Positions 1,761 through 29,258 of a stretch of DNA of 64,000 nt are shown in pieces; position 1 is the stretch's first letter, and each line of letters opens with the position of its first letter. The position numbers were made by a program, and so were the translations under genes. Source of the DNA: Dehalococcoidia bacterium (lineage in GTDB: Bacteria > Chloroflexota > Dehalococcoidia > Lucifugimonadales > UBA1123). The notes beneath the pieces are model-generated. The model worked only from the letters and a program-made list of their open reading frames with translations, was not told the origin of the DNA and ran no database searches. The stretch covers positions 1,269,588-1,333,587 of the forward strand of contig OZ240222.1 of the NCBI GenBank assembly GCA_965197695.1. The letters run 5' to 3'.

Positions 1761-3282
1761 AGCAGTGAGATTGGTTAGAGTCCTATTGGTATCGGCAGCG
1801 CTGGGAGTAGCCGCGCTGTCGGCGTCTCCGGTTTACGGCCACGCATTCGGACAGCGCTACGACCTCCCGATCCCGTTGAACTACTTTCTGATCGGAGCGG
1901 TGGCAACCGTCGCGCTGTCTTTCGTCGTGATCGGGATGTTCGTGCGCCGGCGGACCGCGTCGCCCGCATACCCGCGGCTGGACCTGTTGAGAGCGCCGAT
2001 CGTCGGAACGGTGATCTCCAGCCGTATCACGTCCATCACAATCCGGACGATCGCGGTGGCGGTTTTCCTGCTGGTGGTGGTGGCCGGGTTCGCGGGTACG
2101 AATCGGCCGGTGGAAAACATCTCTCCCACCTTCGTCTGGATTATCTGGTGGGTGGGGATGGGGTACGTCGTCGCGCTGTTCGGCAACGTCTGGACGTACC
2201 TGAATCCCTGGAAGATCACGTTCGAGTGGTACCGTAGGCTCCGCCGTCACTCCGGAGAGCCGGAGGACCCGCCGTTCAACTACCCGGACGGCTTCGAAGT
2301 CTGGCCCGCCGTGCTGCTGTTCTTCCTGTTCGCCTGGGCGGAGAACGTGTTCACCGGGGCGTTCCGTCCGTTTACGTTGTCGGTCATGGTGCTCACGTAC
2401 TCGGCGATCACCTGGGTCGGAATGGCGGCGTTCGGCAAGCACGCCTGGCTGAGAAACGCCGAGGCGTTCACGGTCCTCTTCGGGATATTCGCCAAGTTCT
2501 CCCCAACCGAGGTCCGGGTCACCGACCGGCGACTCTGCCGGGACTGCGGCTCCGGATGCGATGAGGAAGCCGGGTGTATCGACTGCTACGACTGCTACGA
2601 GAGGGCGCCTTCCGAGTCCCGGGAGCTGAACATCCGTCCGTTCGCCATCGGCCTGGCGCTGCCGAGCCGGATCACGGCGGGCGCGGCGGCATTCGTTATC
2701 CTCGCGCTGTCAGCGGTCACGTTCGATGGATTCCAGGACACCGAGACGTGGACGGACCTTCGCACCGGCCTTCTGACCACCACCACGGTGGACGTGGTGG
2801 ATACGGCAGCCCTGGTCGCCGCGCCGCTGATCTTCGCCGTCGTTTACCTGGGCTTCTCATGGGGCGTGAAGCTGCTGTCCGGCGGTCGGACATCCGTCCC
2901 GGTATTGGCGAGAGCGTTCGTGTTCTCTCTCGTGCCGATTGCGCTCGCGTACAATCTGGCCCACTTCATCACGCTGCTGCTGATAGAGGGGCAGAACATA
3001 ATCCCGCTGGCGTCCGACCCTCTTGGGTCCGGTTGGGACCTGTTCGGGACGGCGGACTACAGGCCACAGGCGAACATCATCAACGCCAAGGTCGTCTGGT
3101 TCATCAGCCTGATCGCGATCGTCCTGGGTCACGTGACCTCGGTGTACCTCGGTCACGTCGTCGCGCTCGCCCGCGCGCCGGCCTCGTCGAACGTACTCCG
3201 TGAACAGACCCCAATGCTGGCGCTGATGGTACTGTACACGGCCAGCAGCCTCTGGATCATCGCCCAGCCGATCGTGGGGTGA
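1747..3282 (+). CDS. Polytopic membrane protein with signal peptide, predicted N-terminal His and a 6-Cys loop
   Basis: ORF 1660-3282. I prefer ATG 1747 because 1660-1746 is the repeat element. MDAVVAVRLVRVLLVSAALGVAALSASPVYG/HAFG resembles a signal peptide. About 12 hydrophobic segments. CRDCGSGCDEEAGCIDCYDC is encoded at nt 2536-2595. Confidence 0.5.
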   Translation: MDAVVAVRLVRVLLVSAALGVAALSASPVYGHAFGQRYDLPIPLNYFLIGAVATVALSFVVIGMFVRRRTASPAYPRLDLLRAPIVGTVISSRITSITIRTIAVAVFLLVVVAGFAGTNRPVENISPTFVWIIWWVGMGYVVALFGNVWTYLNPWKITFEWYRRLRRHSGEPEDPPFNYPDGFEVWPAVLLFFLFAWAENVFTGAFRPFTLSVMVLTYSAITWVGMAAFGKHAWLRNAEAFTVLFGIFAKFSPTEVRVTDRRLCRDCGSGCDEEAGCIDCYDCYERAPSESRELNIRPFAIGLALPSRITAGAAAFVILALSAVTFDGFQDTETWTDLRTGLLTTTTVDVVDTAALVAAPLIFAVVYLGFSWGVKLLSGGRTSVPVLARAFVFSLVPIALAYNLAHFITLLLIEGQNIIPLASDPLGSGWDLFGTADYRPQANIINAKVVWFISLIAIVLGHVTSVYLGHVVALARAPASSNVLREQTPMLALMVLYTASSLWIIAQPIVG

Positions 3283-3339
3283 GGGTAGGCGTTGGAGTCC
3301 TCGCTTGTCGGACATTGATGCAGCCGTTAGACTCAGACT

Positions 3340-4716
3340 ATGGATAGCGTGACTATCAAGGACTACCGTTGCTTCCGCGGGGAGCAGACGGCGCAACTGG
3401 CTCCGCTGACGCTGCTCGTAGGCGAGAACAGCACGGGCAAAACCTCGTTCCTCGCGATTCTCCGTGCGCTGTGGGAGGTGGCGGTCAACGAAGCGGTCCC
3501 GGATTTCCGTAGACCGCCCTACGATCTCGGCGCTTCCAGCGAGATCGTGTACAACGACAGTAGCCGGACCGAGCAGCCTGATACTTTCCACGCAGGGTTT
3601 CGAGACTCTGGCTCGACGAATTCCAACGAGGTAGTATCATTCGACGTGACGTTCGAGGATCTCGATGGAGTAACGTTTCCCGTTTCGAGGTACGTGTCGG
3701 TAGATGACGTATCCTTTGAGGTTGCCGCTCGACCGGAGCAGAGTGGAGAGCTTCGACTTGGCATCGAAGACCGTAGCTGGAAAGTGGCCTCCGCGCTAGT
3801 TTGGTCCAACTCCAGTCGTGAACGGCTGTTTCCTATTGATCCGGTAATTTGGGACGCTTTGCGCATATTTGAGCGGAACGGACCACCGGGTTCGGTCCGA
3901 GAGGCAGCCGAGCAGTATGGAGGACTTTCACTTGATGAAGACGACATAGAGCGCATTGGAGAATCGCGACTACTATTGGAGTCTTGGCGGTTCCACCGAG
4001 GACACGTTCTTGGCGGCGACAGCGCGGCGCCGTTCGCGGGCGCGCCGGTCCGCTCGAAACCAAGGCGGACTTACGACCCGTCGCGACCAATCACTGACCC
4101 AGAGGGGGGAAATGTCCCTGCCTACTTGTCTATGATGTCGCGTCGCGATCCCGGCGCTTGGAAGAAGCTCAAAGAGCGTCTCGAACGGTTCGGAACTGAC
4201 TCTGGACTATTTGACGAAATCTCGATCGAGTCCTTCGGCCGGACGGGTGATGCCACTCCGTTCCAGATTCAGATTCGCAAATTTGGCAGAGAGATCAAGG
4301 GTAATCGCAGGAACTTGATCGACGTGGGATACGGCGTCAGCCAGGCGCTGCCGATCATCACTGAGCTGCTGCGTCCAGATGCGCCGTCGATGTTCCTGTT
4401 GCAGCAGCCGGAGGTGCATCTGCACCCGAGCGCGCAGGCCGCCCTCGGAAGTCTGTTCTGCTCAATCGCTGGACAGAAGCGGCAGCTGGTGGTCGAAACG
4501 CACAGCGACTACATCATCGACCGTGTACGAATGGATGTCCGGGATAAACGAACGGACCTAAAATCCGACGACGTTTCGATCCTGTACTTCGAGCGCGGCG
4601 AGCTTGATGTGAATATCCATTCGATCAGACTGGATGACTACGGCAACGTGCTGGACGCGCCGGAAGGCTATCGTCAATTCTTCGCGGATGAGCTACGCAG
4701 GTCCATCGGCATTTAG
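3340..4716 (+). CDS. ABC/AAA-type ATPase (AAA_21 / DUF3696-like C-terminus)
   Basis: Walker A GENSTGKT (aa 28-35), signature-like GYGVSQALPI, Walker B FLLQQPEVHLHP, H-loop VVETHSD. The C-terminal tail resembles what I recall as DUF3696. AT-richer than the neighbouring genes. Confidence 0.75.
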   Translation: MDSVTIKDYRCFRGEQTAQLAPLTLLVGENSTGKTSFLAILRALWEVAVNEAVPDFRRPPYDLGASSEIVYNDSSRTEQPDTFHAGFRDSGSTNSNEVVSFDVTFEDLDGVTFPVSRYVSVDDVSFEVAARPEQSGELRLGIEDRSWKVASALVWSNSSRERLFPIDPVIWDALRIFERNGPPGSVREAAEQYGGLSLDEDDIERIGESRLLLESWRFHRGHVLGGDSAAPFAGAPVRSKPRRTYDPSRPITDPEGGNVPAYLSMMSRRDPGAWKKLKERLERFGTDSGLFDEISIESFGRTGDATPFQIQIRKFGREIKGNRRNLIDVGYGVSQALPIITELLRPDAPSMFLLQQPEVHLHPSAQAALGSLFCSIAGQKRQLVVETHSDYIIDRVRMDVRDKRTDLKSDDVSILYFERGELDVNIHSIRLDDYGNVLDAPEGYRQFFADELRRSIGI

Positions 4717-5187
4717 ATGTGCGCGATCGTAGACGCAAGTGTCGGATACGAGGTTTTCATCGAGAGCAGTCAGTCCGCGGCGGGCAAGTTCTTTTTCGAC
4801 TGGTTGATGCGAAAGAACGGCGGAACCCTTGTTGCCGGGGGGAAGCTCCTGTGTGAGTTGAACCGGATCGCAGACTTCCAGCGGGTGTTCAGCGAGAGGT
4901 TGCAGGCAGGACGCGCCAGACGGATCCCCGACGAGGTTGTGGGCACCGCAACCGAGGCTATGCAATCACGTCGAATCTGCCGCTCCAACGACGAACACGT
5001 CATCGCGTTGGCGCAAATCAGTGGAGCGCGCCTCCTCTTCACAAACGACAATGCTCTACAGGACGACTTTCGGGATCGCCAGATCATTGGCGGCGCCAGA
5101 GGGCGAGTTTACACAACGGGACAGTCCAGGAACATTAGCGCGACGCACATCAGGCTTCTCAGGCGGCGCGACCTTTGTGACGGATAA
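4717..5187 (+). CDS. PIN-like nuclease domain protein
   Basis: ATG 4717 directly abuts the ATPase stop (TAGATG). Acidic residues sit at PIN-like positions: D6 (IVDAS), E48, D92/E93 (SNDEHVIALA) and D111 (FTNDN). Confidence 0.5.
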   Translation: MCAIVDASVGYEVFIESSQSAAGKFFFDWLMRKNGGTLVAGGKLLCELNRIADFQRVFSERLQAGRARRIPDEVVGTATEAMQSRRICRSNDEHVIALAQISGARLLFTNDNALQDDFRDRQIIGGARGRVYTTGQSRNISATHIRLLRRRDLCDG

Positions 5188-5203
5188 ACAGCCTAATAGC
5201 GCG

Positions 5204-5233
5204 TTGACCGCCCGTGCGACTGGTGCGTATAAT
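5204..5233 (+). promoter_or_regulatory. Putative sigma70-type promoter of the pur operon
   Basis: TTGACC (5204-5209), 18-nt spacer, TATAAT (5228-5233), upstream of purF. Confidence 0.4.
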
Positions 5234-5328
5234 CGGTCTGCGGTCCACGTTCGCCGCTCTCGGGATTGTGGCCGACTACTCCCCGAGACCGACACGCGGG
5301 CCGAAACGAAGCACTGGCAACCGGGTCT

Positions 5329-6807
5329 ATGGAGCGGAGTCCCATCGGTCCTGACAGCCATCTCCTGCACCGCGCAGGTCACTCATTAGAAACTTCCGAC
5401 AGCGCCCGCGAGGCGTGCGGAGTTGTGGGTGTGTACCATCCGGGCGAGGACGTTGCCCGGATAGCATTCTTCGGTATCTACGCCCTGCAGCACAGGGGCC
5501 AGGAAAGCTCAGGGATCGCCGCCTCCGACGGATCGACCCTGCGTAACCGGACCGGGATGGGCCTCATCAACCGGGCGTTCGAAGAGGATGATCTCGTCGA
5601 TCTGCCGGGTCACCTCGCCATCGCTCACACACGCTACTCCACGACCGGCTCGTCCCGTATCGTCAACGCGCAGCCGATTGTGGCCAGGGGGCCGGACGTC
5701 GAGCTGGCGCTGGCGCACAACGGCAATGTGATCAACGCCGTTTTCCTGCGCCGGGAGATGGAGGATCAAGGGTTCACGTTCAACGGGACCAGCGATACTG
5801 AAATCATCGCCAGCCTGCTCGCCAACGCCCCCGCCGGAGACTGGGAAGGTCGCGTCTCATACCTGATGCGCAAGCTCAAGGGGGCCTACTCGCTGACCGT
5901 GCTCACCAGGACCCAGCTCCTGGGGATTCGTGACCCACTGGGCGTCAGGCCGCTGTGCATCGGCAAGTTGACCGACGGCTGGGTGATGGCGTCCGAGTCA
6001 TGCGCGCTGGACCACGTGGGCGCGCAATTCGTCAGGGACGTCCAGCCCGGAGAAGCTGTGCTGATCGACGAATACGGCCTCCGCACAGTGAAGGCGCCAA
6101 GCGGCGATGGCCGGCGCGCAAGCTGTGTCTTCGAAAACATCTACTTCTCACGACCCGACAGCGTACTCGACGGGCGTCTGGTGTACAGCGACCGCATGAG
6201 GATGGGCGCGGAGCTCGCGCGGGAACACCCTGTCGAGGCCGATATGGTCATCGGTGTTCCGGATTCGGCGACCGCGGCGGCGGTGGGGTACGCCCAGGAG
6301 ACCGGCATCCCCTACGGCGAGGGACTCGTCAAGAACCGCTACGTTGGCCGGACGTTTATCGAGCCCAACCAGCGGTTCCGGGACTTGGGAGTCCGGCGGA
6401 AGCTGAACCCGCTGTCCGAGATCATCCGCGGCAAGCGACTCGTGGTCGTGGACGACAGCATCGTGAGAGGGACCACGACCCCGCACGTCGTCAAGCTGCT
6501 GCGGAGAGGCGGCGCCGCGGAGATCCACCTCAGAATTACGGCGCCCCCGATCATATCGACCTGCCACTTCGGGGTCGATATGGCCTCCAAGAGTGAGCTG
6601 ATTGCCGCGAACCTGTCCGTTGAGGAGATCAGGCAGATGGTCCAGGCGGACTCGCTCGGATATCTCAGCGTAGAGGGGTTGTCCCGCGCGGTGTACGGGT
6701 CAGACCGGACCTACTGCATGGGATGTTTCACCGGCGAGTACCCAATCCCCGTCCAGTTGGAGATGGACAAGCTGGTAATGGAGGCTCAAGAGATCGGCGC
6801 GGACTAG
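5329..6807 (+). CDS. purF: Amidophosphoribosyltransferase
   Basis: CGVVGVY N-terminal nucleophile motif, PRTase motif VVVDDSIVRGTT, C-terminal Cys residues. The start is uncertain (TTG 5266 or ATG 5329). Either start implies a propeptide before the Cys. Confidence 0.9.
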   Translation: MERSPIGPDSHLLHRAGHSLETSDSAREACGVVGVYHPGEDVARIAFFGIYALQHRGQESSGIAASDGSTLRNRTGMGLINRAFEEDDLVDLPGHLAIAHTRYSTTGSSRIVNAQPIVARGPDVELALAHNGNVINAVFLRREMEDQGFTFNGTSDTEIIASLLANAPAGDWEGRVSYLMRKLKGAYSLTVLTRTQLLGIRDPLGVRPLCIGKLTDGWVMASESCALDHVGAQFVRDVQPGEAVLIDEYGLRTVKAPSGDGRRASCVFENIYFSRPDSVLDGRLVYSDRMRMGAELAREHPVEADMVIGVPDSATAAAVGYAQETGIPYGEGLVKNRYVGRTFIEPNQRFRDLGVRRKLNPLSEIIRGKRLVVVDDSIVRGTTTPHVVKLLRRGGAAEIHLRITAPPIISTCHFGVDMASKSELIAANLSVEEIRQMVQADSLGYLSVEGLSRAVYGSDRTYCMGCFTGEYPIPVQLEMDKLVMEAQEIGAD

Positions 6808-6937: not shown

Positions 6938-7591
6938 ATGAATGAGCGGCAGGCTCCTGTGCTGACGAGAAAGCTCCGACTCGCCGTGTTGGCTTCGCAT
7001 GGCGGCACCAATCTTCAGGCGATCATCGACGCCTGTCGCGACGGCTCGCTGGATGCCGAAATCCGCGTGGTGATTTCAAACAACTCACGCTCACTCGCGT
7101 TGGAACGCGCGCGCAAAGCCGGCATCCCCACGATGCACCTGAGCTCCGTTACCCACGCAGACCCCGGGGCGCTGGATGAATCGATTACGGATACTCTGCT
7201 CGCCCACGGAACAGAGGTGGTCGTGCTTGCCGGATACATGAAGAAGCTGGGAGCGCGGTGCCTCCGCGCCTACCGCAATCGGGTCCTCAACGTGCATCCG
7301 GCGCTGCTTCCGAAATTCGGCGGCCCCGGCATGTACGGCGATCGGGTCCACGCGGCCGTGCTCGAATCCGGCGACCCGGTGTCAGGCGCAACGGTCCACC
7401 TGGTGGACGAGGAGTACGACCAGGGACCGATCATCTCCCAAGGAGAGGTCCCCGTCCGCCCCGGCGACACTGTCGATACGCTGGCGGCGCGGGTCTTGCG
7501 TCAGGAACACTCACTATACGCGACAACCCTACAACGGATCGCCGCGGGCGAAATAGACCTCGATCATGTTGCAGACCGCGACCGCGGCTAG
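6938..7591 (+). CDS. purN: Phosphoribosylglycinamide formyltransferase
   Basis: LAVLASHGGTNLQAIIDA and NVHPALLPKFGG motifs. The listed ORF starts at GTG 6920 inside the repeat, so ATG 6938 or GTG 6959 is more likely. Confidence 0.85.
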   Translation: MNERQAPVLTRKLRLAVLASHGGTNLQAIIDACRDGSLDAEIRVVISNNSRSLALERARKAGIPTMHLSSVTHADPGALDESITDTLLAHGTEVVVLAGYMKKLGARCLRAYRNRVLNVHPALLPKFGGPGMYGDRVHAAVLESGDPVSGATVHLVDEEYDQGPIISQGEVPVRPGDTVDTLAARVLRQEHSLYATTLQRIAAGEIDLDHVADRDRG

Positions 7592-7606
7592 GAGCGCAAT
7601 CTTCCG

Positions 7607-8620
7607 ATGACCGAACAGACCTACAAGCAGGCGGGAGTCGATCTCGAAGCGTCGCGGGACGTGAAGCGCCGTATCCAGGATATCGTGGCGCGTACGCACG
7701 GTCCCGAGGTGCTGGCCGGAGTCGGAGCATTCGGCGCGCTGTACTCGTTCTCCGGATTCCGGGAGCCGGTATTGGTGTCAAGCACTGACCCGGTCGGGAC
7801 CAAGCTCAAGCTGGCGGTCATGACCGGCCGGTTCGACGGGATCGGGGAAGACCTCGTCAACGCATGCGTCAACGACGTGATCGTATGCGGAGCGCGGCCC
7901 CTGCTGTTCCTCGACTATATCAACATGAGCGAGCTTCGGCCCGACGTGGTGACGACCCTGGTCGAGGGAATGGCGAGAGCGTGCGAGGAGGTCGGCTGCG
8001 CGCTGATCGGAGGCGAGACCGCCGAGATGCCGGGCGTGTTCGCGGACGATAACTTCGACGTCTCGGGGTTCGTCCTCGGGGTGGTCGAACGGGCCGAGAT
8101 GATCGACACGTCCCGGATCGCGGCGGGCGACGTTCTCGTGGGGATTCCGTCCAACGGCCTGCACACCAACGGGTACTCGCTGGTCCGGCATGTGTACGGT
8201 CTGGACATCGACCCGGCTCCGCTCGCGGAGTACCGCCCCGAGCTTGGAGAGACGCTCGGAGACGCGCTTCTAAGGCCGCACCCGCCGTACTTCAACATGC
8301 TGAAGCCGGTATTCGGCATGGTCAGGGGGATTGCGCACATCACCGGCGGCGGCCTGATCGAGAACGTCCCCAGGATACTCCCGGACGGGACGGCAGCCAG
8401 GTTCGACACGTCGTCGTGGCCGGTCCCACCGGTATTCACCCTGATCCAGGAAGACGGCGGCGTCTCCCGTGACGAGATGTACCGCGTGTTCAACATGGGA
8501 CTCGGAATGGTGCTCGCCTGCGACAGGAGCCGCCTGCCCGACGTTCTCGCGCTGCTCCCTGACGCGCGGGAGGTTGGCGAGGTTGCTCCCGATGACGGCC
8601 GGGGACGTGCTATTCTATAG
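7607..8620 (+). CDS. purM: Phosphoribosylformylglycinamidine cyclo-ligase (AIR synthetase)
   Basis: YKQAGVDLEA start, DPVGTKLK, and GGETAEMPG motifs. Confidence 0.9.
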   Translation: MTEQTYKQAGVDLEASRDVKRRIQDIVARTHGPEVLAGVGAFGALYSFSGFREPVLVSSTDPVGTKLKLAVMTGRFDGIGEDLVNACVNDVIVCGARPLLFLDYINMSELRPDVVTTLVEGMARACEEVGCALIGGETAEMPGVFADDNFDVSGFVLGVVERAEMIDTSRIAAGDVLVGIPSNGLHTNGYSLVRHVYGLDIDPAPLAEYRPELGETLGDALLRPHPPYFNMLKPVFGMVRGIAHITGGGLIENVPRILPDGTAARFDTSSWPVPPVFTLIQEDGGVSRDEMYRVFNMGLGMVLACDRSRLPDVLALLPDAREVGEVAPDDGRGRAIL

Positions 8621-8690: not shown

Positions 8691-10214
8691 GTGCCAGCAA
8701 TCAAGTGGTCACCGATCAAGCCCCTGAACAAAAACTCCATTGACGTAGATTTTGCCGAGATCGATGGGTTGCATCAGCAGTGGCTGGAGATAAAGACTAG
8801 TGTTGAAGACTCCAATCCGAAGGCATACGACCAGTTCAACGAAGAGTTGTTTCGTAGCTGGGCCATTGAGACAGGAATCATCGAGGGTCTGTACGAGCTT
8901 GACCGCGGGATTACACGGACACTGATACAGCGGGGCTTCGCTAGTGACTATGTCGAGAGGAACTCATTCAACGGGCCGCCAGAGGAGCTCATCGCCATCC
9001 TGCGCGACCACAGAGAAGTGATTGATCATATCAACGCTTGGACTGAGGACTCTCGTCCGCTGACTACCTGGTTCATCCGGAGCCTGCATCAAGCGATTGC
9101 CCGTAATCAACCGACCTATAGAGCTGTCGATCAGTTCTGCCACTTCTTCGATGCGGAACTCCACAAGGGCCAGTTCAAGAGATTGCCCAACAATCCGACC
9201 CAACCCGACGAGATTGTCCATGAGTACTGTCCGCCTGAACAGGTCGATTCCGAAATCGAGAGTATGATCGACTGGTATCAGTCTTATGATGACAAGCACC
9301 ATCCTCTGGCGGTTGCCGCTTGGCTCCATCACAGATTTACACAGATTCACCCCTTTGAAGACGGCAACGGCAGGGTGGTTCGAGCGCTGTTGACGTGGCA
9401 TCTGGTGAGGACTGGTTTCCTGCCAATTGTGATAACCCGCGACACCAGATCTGAGTACATCGCTACCCTGGAAAAAGCCGACAGCGGAGACCTATCGCCG
9501 TTTGTGCGTCTCTTGGTGAAACTTGAGAGAGAGACATTGCTTAATGCTTTGAGCGTCGAGCATGGTCAAATTCCTAGTATAAACACCGTAGAAGAAGTTA
9601 TCGGATTCATCGTTGATGGATTCCAAAAGAAACAAAGGGAACAGGAAAGTAAGCTGCGATCGGTGCAGCGGACCGCCGTTCTGCTTAGGGAACACGCAGG
9701 TAACATTCTCCAAGAAGAAACCGGACGGGTCAGTCAGCAGCTTGCTGATACAATTAGCCTGGAAGTGGATACGAGAATATCTCTTGGCGGTCCGGAAGAA
9801 GGGAACGAGTATTACTACAAGCGTGAAGTGCTCAAGACAGCTCAAGATGCAGGACACTGGGTAAATTTTCAGGAACCTCGATACTTCGTAAGGGTCACGA
9901 TGCGTGAGACTTCACAATCTCGAAGCCCCGCGATGGTTTTCGTGATCTCATTGCACAGTGTAGGCCGGCGCCTTACAGGAGTCATGGCCGCTACCAGTTT
10001 TTTGAAGCGGCGCTATCCGTCATCCCAGGACGAACATGAAGATGACGCGGAGGAAGTGAATGATCCTGAGTTTGAAGTATGCAGCCTCGATCCATTTCTC
10101 TTTACGGTCGCTGACACCTTCGACAACTTGAGACTCCGGTTTGAGACATGGGTGAGGCAGAGTTTTAGCGTGGCGCTTCGAAGATGGGGCGAAACAGTAA
10201 TCGAACAGGTCTAA
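8691..10214 (+). CDS. Fic family protein (class II-like, long C-terminal extension)
   Basis: Canonical HPFEDGNGRVVR Fic motif. N-terminal TGIIEG matches the [ST]xxxE[GN] inhibitory helix. GTG start preceded by AGGAGGG. About 230 aa of unassigned C-terminus. AT-richer DNA. Confidence 0.85.
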   Translation: MPAIKWSPIKPLNKNSIDVDFAEIDGLHQQWLEIKTSVEDSNPKAYDQFNEELFRSWAIETGIIEGLYELDRGITRTLIQRGFASDYVERNSFNGPPEELIAILRDHREVIDHINAWTEDSRPLTTWFIRSLHQAIARNQPTYRAVDQFCHFFDAELHKGQFKRLPNNPTQPDEIVHEYCPPEQVDSEIESMIDWYQSYDDKHHPLAVAAWLHHRFTQIHPFEDGNGRVVRALLTWHLVRTGFLPIVITRDTRSEYIATLEKADSGDLSPFVRLLVKLERETLLNALSVEHGQIPSINTVEEVIGFIVDGFQKKQREQESKLRSVQRTAVLLREHAGNILQEETGRVSQQLADTISLEVDTRISLGGPEEGNEYYYKREVLKTAQDAGHWVNFQEPRYFVRVTMRETSQSRSPAMVFVISLHSVGRRLTGVMAATSFLKRRYPSSQDEHEDDAEEVNDPEFEVCSLDPFLFTVADTFDNLRLRFETWVRQSFSVALRRWGETVIEQV

Positions 10215-10257: not shown

Positions 10258-10596
10258 GTGCAGATTAGAGAAAAGCCCCCTGTCGTCGTCGACCCGAGCG
10301 TCGAGCACTTGATGAAGGGAGACATGATCGAAATTCGGAACACGATCCTCGATCTTATCCCTACGGTCGCTGGATGCCATGGCATTCAGATAGATCGGAT
10401 ACGTATCATGCTGCACGTCTTCGCCGAGGACGACTGGGAGAATGTCATCTTCGAGATCTACGTTGCCGCTGACGAAGACAGCGCATTCGCATACTGGGAA
10501 GCCGTCAGCGACGCTGTCTCACAGGCCGAAGAAGGCATGGAAAAGGCGATGCAGGACACCCTTAACTATCATGTCGGGGTGTCTGTCGAGTGGTAA
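10258..10596 (+). CDS. Hypothetical acidic protein (candidate antitoxin-like partner)
   Basis: 112-aa ORF with no motif I recognise. Its stop overlaps the start of the next ORF (GTGGTAA). Confidence 0.4.
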   Translation: MQIREKPPVVVDPSVEHLMKGDMIEIRNTILDLIPTVAGCHGIQIDRIRIMLHVFAEDDWENVIFEIYVAADEDSAFAYWEAVSDAVSQAEEGMEKAMQDTLNYHVGVSVEW

Positions 10597-27528: not shown

Positions 27529-28659
27529 ATGAAGCTCTTGAGCCTCACTGTAAGGAACTACCGCAGTCTCCGCGATGCGAGCATTGAGTTGGGCGACCTC
27601 ACATTATTCATTGGGGCCAACGCATCGGGGAAGAGCGCCATACTCGACGCACTCCGATTTCTGAACGAAGCTGTTCAGACACGCGACTTCCGCGCGCCGG
27701 TATTTTCTCGCGGCGGTATCCTCAATCTGGCATGGAAGGGACAGGAGGCAAGCCAGATAGAGTTGATGGTGGCTCTGGAAGACGGAGACAGCCGTTTCGA
27801 GTGGTCTGTACGTCTGATCAGACAGGCGCGTGATTTCCATGTCGAGGAGCAAGTCCACGAAGCTCCTACCGGGTACCCTCCGACCCAGCTACTCAGCGCT
27901 GAGAAGGGCGAGGGCTGGTGGTGGTCTGGCGAGGAGGGGGAACGGGTGATGCTGAAGCAGCCGCCATCCACCTGTGCGCTCGCGGCCGCTTCCGCCGACG
28001 CGTCGTTCCCGGCCCGTGAGGTCGCGGAGTTCATCGGGAGGTGGGGCTTCTTCGACCCGAACCCGTTCTTGCTCCGGCGGGACTGGAACCTTGCGGACTC
28101 TGGCAGGTTCGATCCATACGGGCGGAATCTCGGCGAGACGCTGTACGCTCTCTCAAAATCGTCTCCTGATGTCCTGGAGAAGATCGTCGCGGCAACCCGG
28201 TCGGTGGTGGGCCTTCCATCCAAAATCGAGACCAGGGAGTCTGAGGACCGCTTTTACTTCGTGCAGACTGAACCCGGACTCCAGTTCCCGGTGAACCAGA
28301 TGGGCGTATCCAGCGGGACGCTGCGTATGCTGGCGCTGATGACCGCCCTTCATGGACAACCGGAGACCGCGCTGATCGGCATCGAGGAGCCTGAGAACTA
28401 CATCCACCCAGCCGCTCTGTCCTCTTTCGTGGAGCACATACTTGACGCGCGGGACCGCATCCAATTCATGGTGACCACGCACTCGCCTCTCCTGCTCGAC
28501 TTCCTGAACGACCCTGCGGCCGTGAACGTTGTCAAGCGTGACGACCTGCGGGGCACAGCCGTCTTGAGAGAGTGCGATCCGGACAGTGTGCGAAAAGCTT
28601 TGGAAGCTTCAGGCTTCGGGCTCGGTGAGTACTACGAGACTAGGGGGTTTGGAGGCTGA
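27529..28659 (+). CDS. ABC/AAA-type ATPase (AAA_21/AAA_15-like)
   Basis: Walker A GANASGKS, signature-like VSSGTLRML, Walker B LIGIEEPENYIHP, H-loop VTTHSP. Confidence 0.8.
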   Translation: MKLLSLTVRNYRSLRDASIELGDLTLFIGANASGKSAILDALRFLNEAVQTRDFRAPVFSRGGILNLAWKGQEASQIELMVALEDGDSRFEWSVRLIRQARDFHVEEQVHEAPTGYPPTQLLSAEKGEGWWWSGEEGERVMLKQPPSTCALAAASADASFPAREVAEFIGRWGFFDPNPFLLRRDWNLADSGRFDPYGRNLGETLYALSKSSPDVLEKIVAATRSVVGLPSKIETRESEDRFYFVQTEPGLQFPVNQMGVSSGTLRMLALMTALHGQPETALIGIEEPENYIHPAALSSFVEHILDARDRIQFMVTTHSPLLLDFLNDPAAVNVVKRDDLRGTAVLRECDPDSVRKALEASGFGLGEYYETRGFGG

Positions 28660-28664
28660 CAGAG

Positions 28665-29258
28665 GTGACGAAACATGTGGTGGTCATTGCCTCCGGCGAG
28701 ACCGAGCGCCGAGCGCTTCCTCATCTGCTGGTGCATCTGCGTGATCGCGGCATTGAGGTGAGCGTTCGTATTCCGTCTCGAAACCGGGCGCTAAGCGTCG
28801 AGGTGGCCTACAAACTCATTCGGTCCTCCCTGTACGACATCGGTGGGCTGTCACCGGACAAGTATGTCATTCTTGTAGACCTCGACGATACAGACCCTCG
28901 TAAAGTGTTGGACCCTATAAGATTGGGACTACAGGAGCGTCTTGGCGATCAGTTCGAGCCGAGCGTTCAGTACGCGTATGCGCAGTGGCATCTTGAAGCG
29001 TGGTATTTTGCCGATGCCGCACACTTGAGAGATTACCTCGGAGGTGCCCTGAGGAATGTAGATACTTCACGGCCTGACGAGATTCAGAATCCGAAGCTTC
29101 ATCTGAAGCACTTGCTCAGTAACCGGTTCTACACCGCTCGGGTATCCGAAGAGATTGCAAGGATGCTGGATGCTGAAACCATCGCGGGGCGCAGCCCCAG
29201 CTTCAGCGGATTTCTGGAGGAGGTCAGGAATGGCGCGTCACACACGGCTACAGCCTGA
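28665..29258 (+). CDS. TOPRIM-like small protein (DUF4276-type)
   Basis: GTG start 5 nt after the ATPase stop, with GGAGG 9 nt upstream. Contains VVIASGETERRAL, ILVDLDDTD and HLEAWYFAD, i.e. an E...DxD acidic layout. Confidence 0.55.
   Translation: MTKHVVVIASGETERRALPHLLVHLRDRGIEVSVRIPSRNRALSVEVAYKLIRSSLYDIGGLSPDKYVILVDLDDTDPRKVLDPIRLGLQERLGDQFEPSVQYAYAQWHLEAWYFADAAHLRDYLGGALRNVDTSRPDEIQNPKLHLKHLLSNRFYTARVSEEIARMLDAETIAGRSPSFSGFLEEVRNGASHTATA

Follow-up and report, generated by a model that had tools for sequence, protein, structure and literature searches.

What is encoded where the gene for a large ATPase ends exactly at the start of a gene for a small nuclease-like protein? The question is raised by positions 3340-5187 of a stretch of 64,000 nucleotides from a Dehalococcoidia bacterium (contig OZ240222.1), which we refer to throughout as the window. 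The first gene (3340-4716; 458 amino acids, aa) encodes an ABC-type ATPase assigned by Pfam, PADLOC and structure prediction to a DUF3696 or NsnB-like clade, and proposed here as a sensor and regulator subunit. The second (4717-5187; 156 aa) encodes a stand-alone PIN-domain protein, identified from Pfam, residue conservation and predicted fold, and proposed as an RNase effector or toxin; both genes, and all features of the pair described below, lie on the + strand. On balance, we favour the view that they form a conflict module of two translationally coupled genes, complete in itself and probably directed against phages through an abortive-infection or toxin-like effector; its architecture is that of HEC-03, and it is a relative of the Menshen core, NsnB-NsnC.

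Both of these systems recur throughout the argument. HEC-03 (Hma-embedded candidate 03) combines an ABC ATPase with a VapC-like PIN protein (Payne et al., bioRxiv 10.1101/2024.01.29.577857); its tested representative cut phage plaquing in E. coli, required both genes to do so, and was toxic when induced (bioRxiv 10.1101/2024.01.29.577857). PADLOC represents it by models PDLC04147 and PDLC04148, in which the component letters are swapped, HEC-03A being the ATPase and HEC-03B the PIN protein in the paper (bioRxiv 10.1101/2024.01.29.577857) and the opposite in the models. Menshen (NsnA-NsnB-NsnC; Millman et al. 2022, as cited in PMC12065111) includes NsnB, an ABC ATPase with a DUF3696 tail, and NsnA, a DUF262 protein and predicted sensor (Li et al. 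2025, PMC12065111). Two NsnB DUF3696 tails are predicted by AlphaFold 3 to clamp the PIN-like N-domain of NsnC, which is inactive, the nuclease of this protein being a separate C-terminal domain; all major families of the NsnC PIN-like domain are without catalytic acids (PMC12065111).

Linkage and spread of the two genes

A scan of GTDB with one genome per species found relatives of the PIN protein encoded in 225 of 185,579 genomes; 80 loci were fetched and combined with four metagenomic loci, and in all 84 an ATPase homologue lies directly upstream of the PIN gene on the same strand. It is split in two of these loci, which are degraded copies (L012 and L018), and it is still present upstream of the three most distant PIN members looked up (36-46% identity). 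This adjacency is far beyond chance. Within the window, both open reading frames (ORFs) start with ATG and abut without a gap, the TAG stop (4714-4716) being followed at once by the next ATG (4717-4719), so that the DNA runs GGCATTTAG and then ATGTGC (ATTTAG-ATGTGC). Among 82 loci the distance from stop to start is 0 nucleotides (nt) in 45, -1 in 13 and +3 in 13, and falls between -1 and +5 nt in 74; the conservation of this spacing indicates conserved translational coupling of the two genes, as at the junction in the window (4714-4719).

When all ORFs within 8 kb on either side were clustered for 81 non-redundant loci, the ATPase and the PIN protein were the sole families common to every neighbourhood, and there was no third conserved gene. 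The next most frequent neighbours are argJ/argB (21 loci) and CopCD (11 loci), whose presence is a matter of lineage synteny, and the 81 loci resolve into about 31 distinct contexts if both flanks are required to match. Most hosts are metagenome-assembled genomes (MAGs) of Dehalococcoidia and other Chloroflexota, the others belonging to Spirochaetia, Gammaproteobacteria (including Ca. Rariloculaceae), Rhodothermales, Latescibacterota and Gemmatimonadota. A family profile searched against 1.84 billion cluster representatives matched 1,908 clusters (50% identity) at E<=1e-3 and 1,315 at E<=1e-10. The two genes have been inherited and moved strictly as a unit; the correlation between their distance matrices (r=0.59, Mantel p=0.001) fits such co-inheritance but is weak evidence for it, since any two genes with a common genome history would correlate. 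Five loci from Spirochaetia (L044, L051, L052, L062 and L064) and one from Gammaproteobacteria (L053) have common flanking genes on both sides of the pair despite their different phyla, reflecting either a larger shared mobile region or a mis-binned MAG.

The pair is accessory cargo inserted at a variable junction, because the same junction is either empty or occupied by other cargo in related marine contigs. Upstream in the window are genes for CopC, CopD and cytochrome c, followed by one for a membrane protein of 511-540 aa without a Pfam match; downstream are purF, purN and purM. Six marine relatives (L099, L101, L103, L104, L105 and L117) have empty sites, in which just 145-350 nt separate the membrane gene from purF. 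Loci of the L092 type carry DUF4286, SnoaL and epimerase genes at this position, and L167 has an MFS transporter and octopine dehydrogenase. Neither the ATPase nor the PIN protein of the pair was encoded at any of the 80 loci obtained by scanning metagenome contigs with the upstream membrane protein. A further marine relative (L116) has a classical vapC-type PIN gene at the junction (PF01850, 1e-13; 7588-8025 on the - strand), and an 85-aa ORF upstream of it and overlapping it (8022-8279, -) looks VapBC-like. Given this VapBC-like module, the junction between the membrane gene and purF gathers different small toxin modules.

The two proteins and their surroundings

The larger protein matches AAA_15 (3.6e-21) and AAA_21 (4.4e-18) in Pfam, as well as DUF3696 (PF12476) at residues 408-443 (24.8 bits, above the gathering threshold, GA, of 22). 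Its best PADLOC models are NsnB of Menshen (2e-44, 151 bits), PDC-M55A (8e-30, 102 bits) and, scoring lower than both, the HEC-03 ATPase model PDLC04148 (2.5e-25, 87 bits), to which it aligns only in its C-terminal part (residues 272-452) and on which a plasmid member reaches 440 bits; weaker cross-matches follow to AriA (2.8e-23) and then to GajA, Old and PtuA. Sub-threshold N-terminal P-loop matches were all that NCBIfam returned, and the sole match in a sequence search of the PDB was an OLD-family nuclease (5e-8). An AlphaFold2 (AF2) model with a predicted local distance difference test (pLDDT) score of 79 has Rad50/SMC heads and PtuA of Septu as its top Foldseek matches, and because of these matches the protein is classed as an ABC-type ATPase rather than a member of AAA+. 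On each of the three DUF3696-clade models it scores below the true members of that model. Alignment with the plasmid HEC-03 and PDC-M55 ATPases brings out motifs common to the clade (hh[E/Q]QPExHLHP, DVGxGxSQ, ExHS and a C-terminal GN[VI]..PE.FF tail). Judged from these comparisons, the ATPase appears to be a fourth lineage of the DUF3696 clade, beside NsnB, PDC-M55 and HEC-03.

Alignments of 77 and of 45 homologues show where this lineage is constrained. The Walker A motif or P-loop, GENSTGKT (residues 28-35; 3421-3444), is invariant in both, and GENSTGKTS is so across the 77. In place of the ABC signature motif stands VGYGVSQA (residues 329-336; 4324-4347), where D328, V329, G330, G332, S334 and Q335 are invariant; the same residues are found in the HEC-03 and PDC-M55 ATPases, and the motif agrees with the GxG replacement described for NsnB (PMC12065111). 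The segment FLLQQPEVHLHP (residues 352-363), invariant or nearly so in the 77 homologues, spans a non-canonical Walker B motif, QQPE (residues 355-358; 4402-4413), which does not vary within the family and takes the place of the D-E of canonical ABC ATPases. The full Walker B of the family reads hhhh-QQPE-VHLHP, and the HEC-03 and PDC-M55 ATPases show EQPE at the same place; because this equivalent occurs in them, one of which belongs to a system with experimentally shown activity, the unusual Walker B is a trait of the clade or lineage and not a product of decay. The H-loop region, ETHSD (residues 386-390; 4495-4509), has E386, T387, H388 and S389 invariant among the 45 homologues. By contrast with these conserved motifs, a length-polymorphic and poorly conserved insert (about residues 120-237; 3700-4050) has no conserved columns and many indels in both alignments, and pLDDT is low at residues 182-257; the insert is a candidate trigger-sensing surface. 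The C-terminal DUF3696 segment (residues 408-443; 4561-4668) is proposed as a docking element for the PIN protein, by analogy to NsnB-NsnC.

The small protein is a PIN domain, divergent in sequence but with every catalytic residue of the D-E-D-D set in place. Its Pfam PIN score of 22.0 bits lies just below the GA of 23.6, many of its homologues are precomputed as PF01850, and the length of family members is 154-157 aa. The catalytic residues D6, E47, D92 and D111 are invariant in 46 members, as are S90, T109, N110, D117, C2, H144 and C154, with T109-N110-D111 supplying the typical T-x-D context. The AF2 model (pLDDT 94.8; predicted template modelling score, pTM, 0.90) matches VapC toxins and other PIN proteins in the PDB (5x3t_B, 7vwo_A, 3zvk_C, 1w8i, 5ecw_A and 2fe1; probability 0.9-1.0, template modelling score about 0.5), which make up six of the ten top fold matches, including the top four. 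A PDB sequence search returned no match, no PADLOC model matched at E<=1, and no TOPRIM or HNH match was found in the effector. Two cysteines, C2 and C154, the latter three residues from the C-terminus, are invariant, as is H144, and H94 is nearly so; the AF2 model puts residue 154 against the first strand, and C2, C154 and H144 could form a metal site or a disulfide joining both termini.

The pair had been picked out in an earlier reading of the window from its letters alone (the original prediction), and most of what was then said of it stands. The 458-aa and 156-aa ORFs do abut at TAG-ATG; the motifs GENSTGKT, FLLQQPEVHLHP and ETHSD are present and (nearly) invariant in the 77 homologues; and the flanks are indeed copper/cytochrome membrane genes and the pur operon promoter, both less AT-rich than the pair itself (GC content 0.62-0.66 against 0.54-0.59). 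The description of the large protein as an ABC-type ATPase is borne out, its Pfam matches, including the DUF3696 tail, and Foldseek pointing to the ABC/OLD type. The PIN fold suspected for the 156-aa protein is borne out by the confident AF2 model and its VapC matches, and co-occurrence of the two families across genomes, put forward as a check, was found in 84 of 84 loci. Among the acidic residues listed for the PIN protein, D6, D92/E93 and D111 were placed correctly and E48 is in fact E47.

The promoter just mentioned is a sigma-70-like site, TTGACC-18-TATAAT at 5204-5233, which a promoter scan placed before purF with 11 of 12 consensus positions. No flanking direct or inverted repeats pointing to an integration site were found around the pair, no RNA family was detected by an Rfam scan of 3000-5600, and there are no mobile-element genes beside the pair in the window. 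Upstream of the ATPase gene, a weak promoter-like pair was spotted by eye, consisting of TTGTCG (3305-3310), a 17-nt spacer and TAGACT (3328-3333) and agreeing with the consensus at 8 of 12 positions; it falls below the promoter-scan threshold and is not counted as evidence. It ends 6 nt 5' of the ATPase ATG, where there is no obvious Shine-Dalgarno sequence; a genuine promoter here would give a leaderless mRNA.

Two other regions of the window carry genes of a similar kind. The original prediction had remarked on two ATPase-effector modules in one window, and a further pair is indeed present at 27529-29258. Its first gene (27529-28659, +) encodes a 376-aa AAA_21/AAA_15 ABC ATPase (PADLOC HEC-01A, 2e-53) and its second (28665-29258, +) a 197-aa DUF4276 protein (4.7e-12; PADLOC HEC-01B, 2.6e-13), which together look like a HEC-01-type module of an ATPase and a TOPRIM-like protein; the HEC-01 representative tested by Payne et al. 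gave no defence (bioRxiv 10.1101/2024.01.29.577857). Between purM and purH is a gene (8691-10214, +) for a 507-aa Fic/DOC protein (PF02661, 3.4e-19; PADLOC SoFic, 4e-22), and this region, with a 112-aa ORF at 10258-10596, has a GC content of 0.49-0.53; it looks like a further AT-rich insertion of defence-like character, inside the pur operon.

Proposed function and its rivals

In proposing a mechanism for the pair, we draw chiefly on analogy with better known systems. The ATPase would oligomerise, and its C-terminal DUF3696 elements would keep the PIN protein inactive by binding it in a complex. A cue from the phage might then be sensed through the variable insert of the ATPase (about residues 120-237), altering nucleotide binding or turnover and so releasing or activating the PIN protein; the QQPE Walker B suggests a slow, switch-like ATPase. 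Once freed, the PIN protein would cleave RNA, leading to the arrest of translation, growth and phage production. Its target would likely be tRNA or rRNA, as VapC toxins and the effectors of PARIS, Septu and P2 OLD suggest; recent work reports that PARIS, Septu and OLD effectors cut tRNA. These tRNA-cleaving effectors, together with an RNA ligase linked to HEC-03 (described below), make an RNA target, and probably tRNA, the most economical guess.

Several observations weigh against an anti-phage role of this kind. The module is highly conserved (about 53% mean pairwise identity at fixed length) and its synteny within clades is stable, as in the 21 loci beside argJ, features that are less typical of fast-turnover defence genes. 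The pair does not lie in an obvious defence island, and neither the PIN family nor the module was found in the viral contig and plasmid collections searched. The Walker B is without the canonical D-E, and ATP hydrolysis may accordingly be missing from the ATPase. Moreover, comparison of the window PIN family with a 27-sequence alignment of HEC-03 PINs by hhalign gave a probability of 3%, and reciprocal hmmsearch between the two gave E-values of at least 0.02 in databases of just 120 sequences each. There being no significant similarity of sequence or profile between the PIN proteins, the transfer of function from HEC-03 rests on fold and architecture.

The absence of the module from the viral contigs and plasmids searched would also suit a toxin-antitoxin or addiction module not dedicated to phage defence. 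In such a module the ATPase would be a large antitoxin, different from VapB, or a chaperone, acting on a VapC-like toxin, and the pair would persist selfishly or stabilise the genomic region. The nearest structural neighbours of the PIN protein are VapC toxins, the bicistronic coupling is tight, HEC-03 is itself toxic on induction (bioRxiv 10.1101/2024.01.29.577857), and the same junction in L116 carries a classical vapC-type PIN. We nonetheless consider this unlikely, while granting it an appreciable chance: a 458-aa P-loop ATPase with invariant nucleotide-binding motifs exceeds the needs of a passive antitoxin, and the architecturally equivalent HEC-03 defends against phage (bioRxiv 10.1101/2024.01.29.577857). 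The two roles are, in any case, not mutually exclusive.

If the PIN protein were instead an RNA maturation or quality-control nuclease under the control of the ABC ATPase, in a housekeeping or stress-response complex for RNA processing specific to these lineages, then the strong purifying selection and constant length observed, the long-term synteny within clades beside biosynthetic operons (argJ/argB, purF) and the want of flanking mobile-element genes in the window would all be expected. Such a role is made improbable by the patchy distribution of the pair (225 of 185,579 species genomes) in about 31 different contexts, its spread across phyla at identities like those within a phylum, its absence from related marine genomes at the same junction, the degraded copies in which the ATPase is split, and the fact that its nearest characterised relatives are all defence systems. 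That NsnB is the best PADLOC match of the ATPase (2e-44), that DUF3696 is present and that the partner has a PIN fold like the N-domain of NsnC (PMC12065111) might also point to a degenerate Menshen, reduced by loss of the NsnA sensor and of the C-terminal effector domain of NsnC. This we think very improbable indeed, given that neither DUF262 nor any third conserved gene occurs in the 81 neighbourhoods, that the window PIN keeps the four catalytic acids which the major NsnC PIN-like families are without (PMC12065111), and that so large a family (1,315 clusters at E<=1e-10), kept under selection, is unlike a decaying remnant. A degenerate Menshen was rejected on the grounds that there is no NsnA anywhere and that the PIN domain is catalytically intact.

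Returning to a HEC-03-like conflict module as our preferred interpretation, a bolder extension of it can be offered, if only tentatively and with more doubt than conviction. The family may be a minimal or ancestral docking module of DUF3696 ATPase and PIN protein, in which an active PIN is regulated directly by an NsnB-like ATPase, and from which Menshen would have been derived by inactivation of the PIN domain to an adaptor, the appending of nucleases and the recruitment of a DUF262 sensor. A motif in the PIN protein, G-x-x-F-x-x-W-L-x-R, would then mark a conserved ATPase-binding surface, and the family would constitute a large defence system overlooked by the models of PADLOC v2, with most of its members in uncultivated Chloroflexota of marine and host-associated origin.

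Relation to known defence systems

The closest parallel is HEC-03, which is likewise an operon of two genes, that for the ABC ATPase lying directly upstream of that for a small stand-alone PIN (about 160-180 aa in HEC-03). The ATPases belong to the same DUF3696 clade, with about 25% identity over their full length, common motifs and the C-terminal tail. A plain MAFFT alignment matches Asp residues of the PIN proteins at the first, third and fourth catalytic positions; it also aligns the short G-x-x-F-x-x-W-L-x-R motif (residues 23-32 of the window family) with its counterpart in HEC-03 PINs, a match that is suggestive only. We do not claim sequence homology between the two PIN families, their profile-profile and hidden Markov model comparisons being insignificant.

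The closest plasmid relatives of the ATPase have 24-26% identity over the full length and are annotated 'DUF3696 domain-containing protein'. On plasmids of Azotobacter, Aeromonas and Rhodococcus the next gene downstream overlaps that of the ATPase and encodes a protein of 169-177 aa, with an RNA ligase (PF09414) after it; on Bacillus plasmids the next protein has 352 aa. PADLOC calls these loci HEC-03 and PDC-M55, and they adjoin AbiE/AbiG and Hok genes. The RNA ligase follows plasmid HEC-03 pairs in three of the three loci inspected and is absent from the window pair, which differs too in being chromosomal and in the hosts of its type, for the most part uncultivated Chloroflexota. In the Azotobacter, Aeromonas and Rhodococcus plasmids the ligase match (about 1e-31) comes directly after the ATPase and PIN genes (L085, 5870-6562; L086, 5925-6626; L088, 5904-6503); it goes unmentioned in the HEC-03 preprint (bioRxiv 10.1101/2024.01.29.577857) and hints at a logic of RNA break and repair.

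With Menshen the pair shares an ATPase that resembles NsnB in its DUF3696 tail, in the GxG that replaces the signature motif and in a non-canonical Walker B, and a downstream partner with a PIN fold, the type of domain that DUF3696 is predicted to clamp. It differs in having no NsnA/DUF262 gene upstream, nor any third conserved family in the 81 neighbourhoods, and in that its partner is a single-domain PIN of 156 aa with catalytic residues intact, whereas NsnC joins an inactive PIN adaptor to a nuclease. The parallel with PARIS, Septu and Gabija seen in the original prediction is reflected in cross-matches of the ATPase to their models; PARIS (AriA/AriB), Septu (PtuA/PtuB), Gabija (GajA) and P2 OLD all couple an OLD-type ABC ATPase to a nuclease effector, but their effectors are TOPRIM or HNH rather than PIN, and the insert and C-terminal regions of their ATPases differ. 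The effector has the VapC-like PIN fold and D-E-D-D set of VapBC modules; in place of a small DNA-binding antitoxin of the VapB type, however, a 458-aa ATPase lies upstream and abuts the PIN start.

The pair adds a large and well-conserved sequence family to the defence systems that combine ABC ATPases with nucleases. PADLOC v2 misses this family because its effector has no model there, so that counts of defence systems in Chloroflexota and in further uncultivated lineages from the sea may be too low. Two published systems are also linked, in that an apparently active, stand-alone PIN beside an NsnB-like ATPase supports the DUF3696 tail as a general PIN-docking device and, having just two proteins, is a simpler model in which to study the control that Menshen-type ATPases exert on effectors. 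It reveals no new principle. The original prediction had regarded an ATPase with a PIN effector as a pairing that could not be assigned to a named system; this does not hold, since HEC-03 has that architecture (bioRxiv 10.1101/2024.01.29.577857) and is represented by PADLOC models, and since the DUF3696 tail of Menshen NsnB is predicted to clamp a PIN-fold domain of NsnC (PMC12065111). A match of the pair to an already characterised system had been named there as refuting the prediction: in kind the architecture does match HEC-03, and the sequences lie outside the HEC-03 models. We have filed it as a pair that works like HEC-03 and is related to the NsnB-NsnC core, a member of neither family as now defined. 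Pairs of an ABC ATPase and a PIN-fold partner were known already, and in HEC-03 the pairing has been validated; the one in the window is an unannotated and divergent relative rather than a system of a new type.

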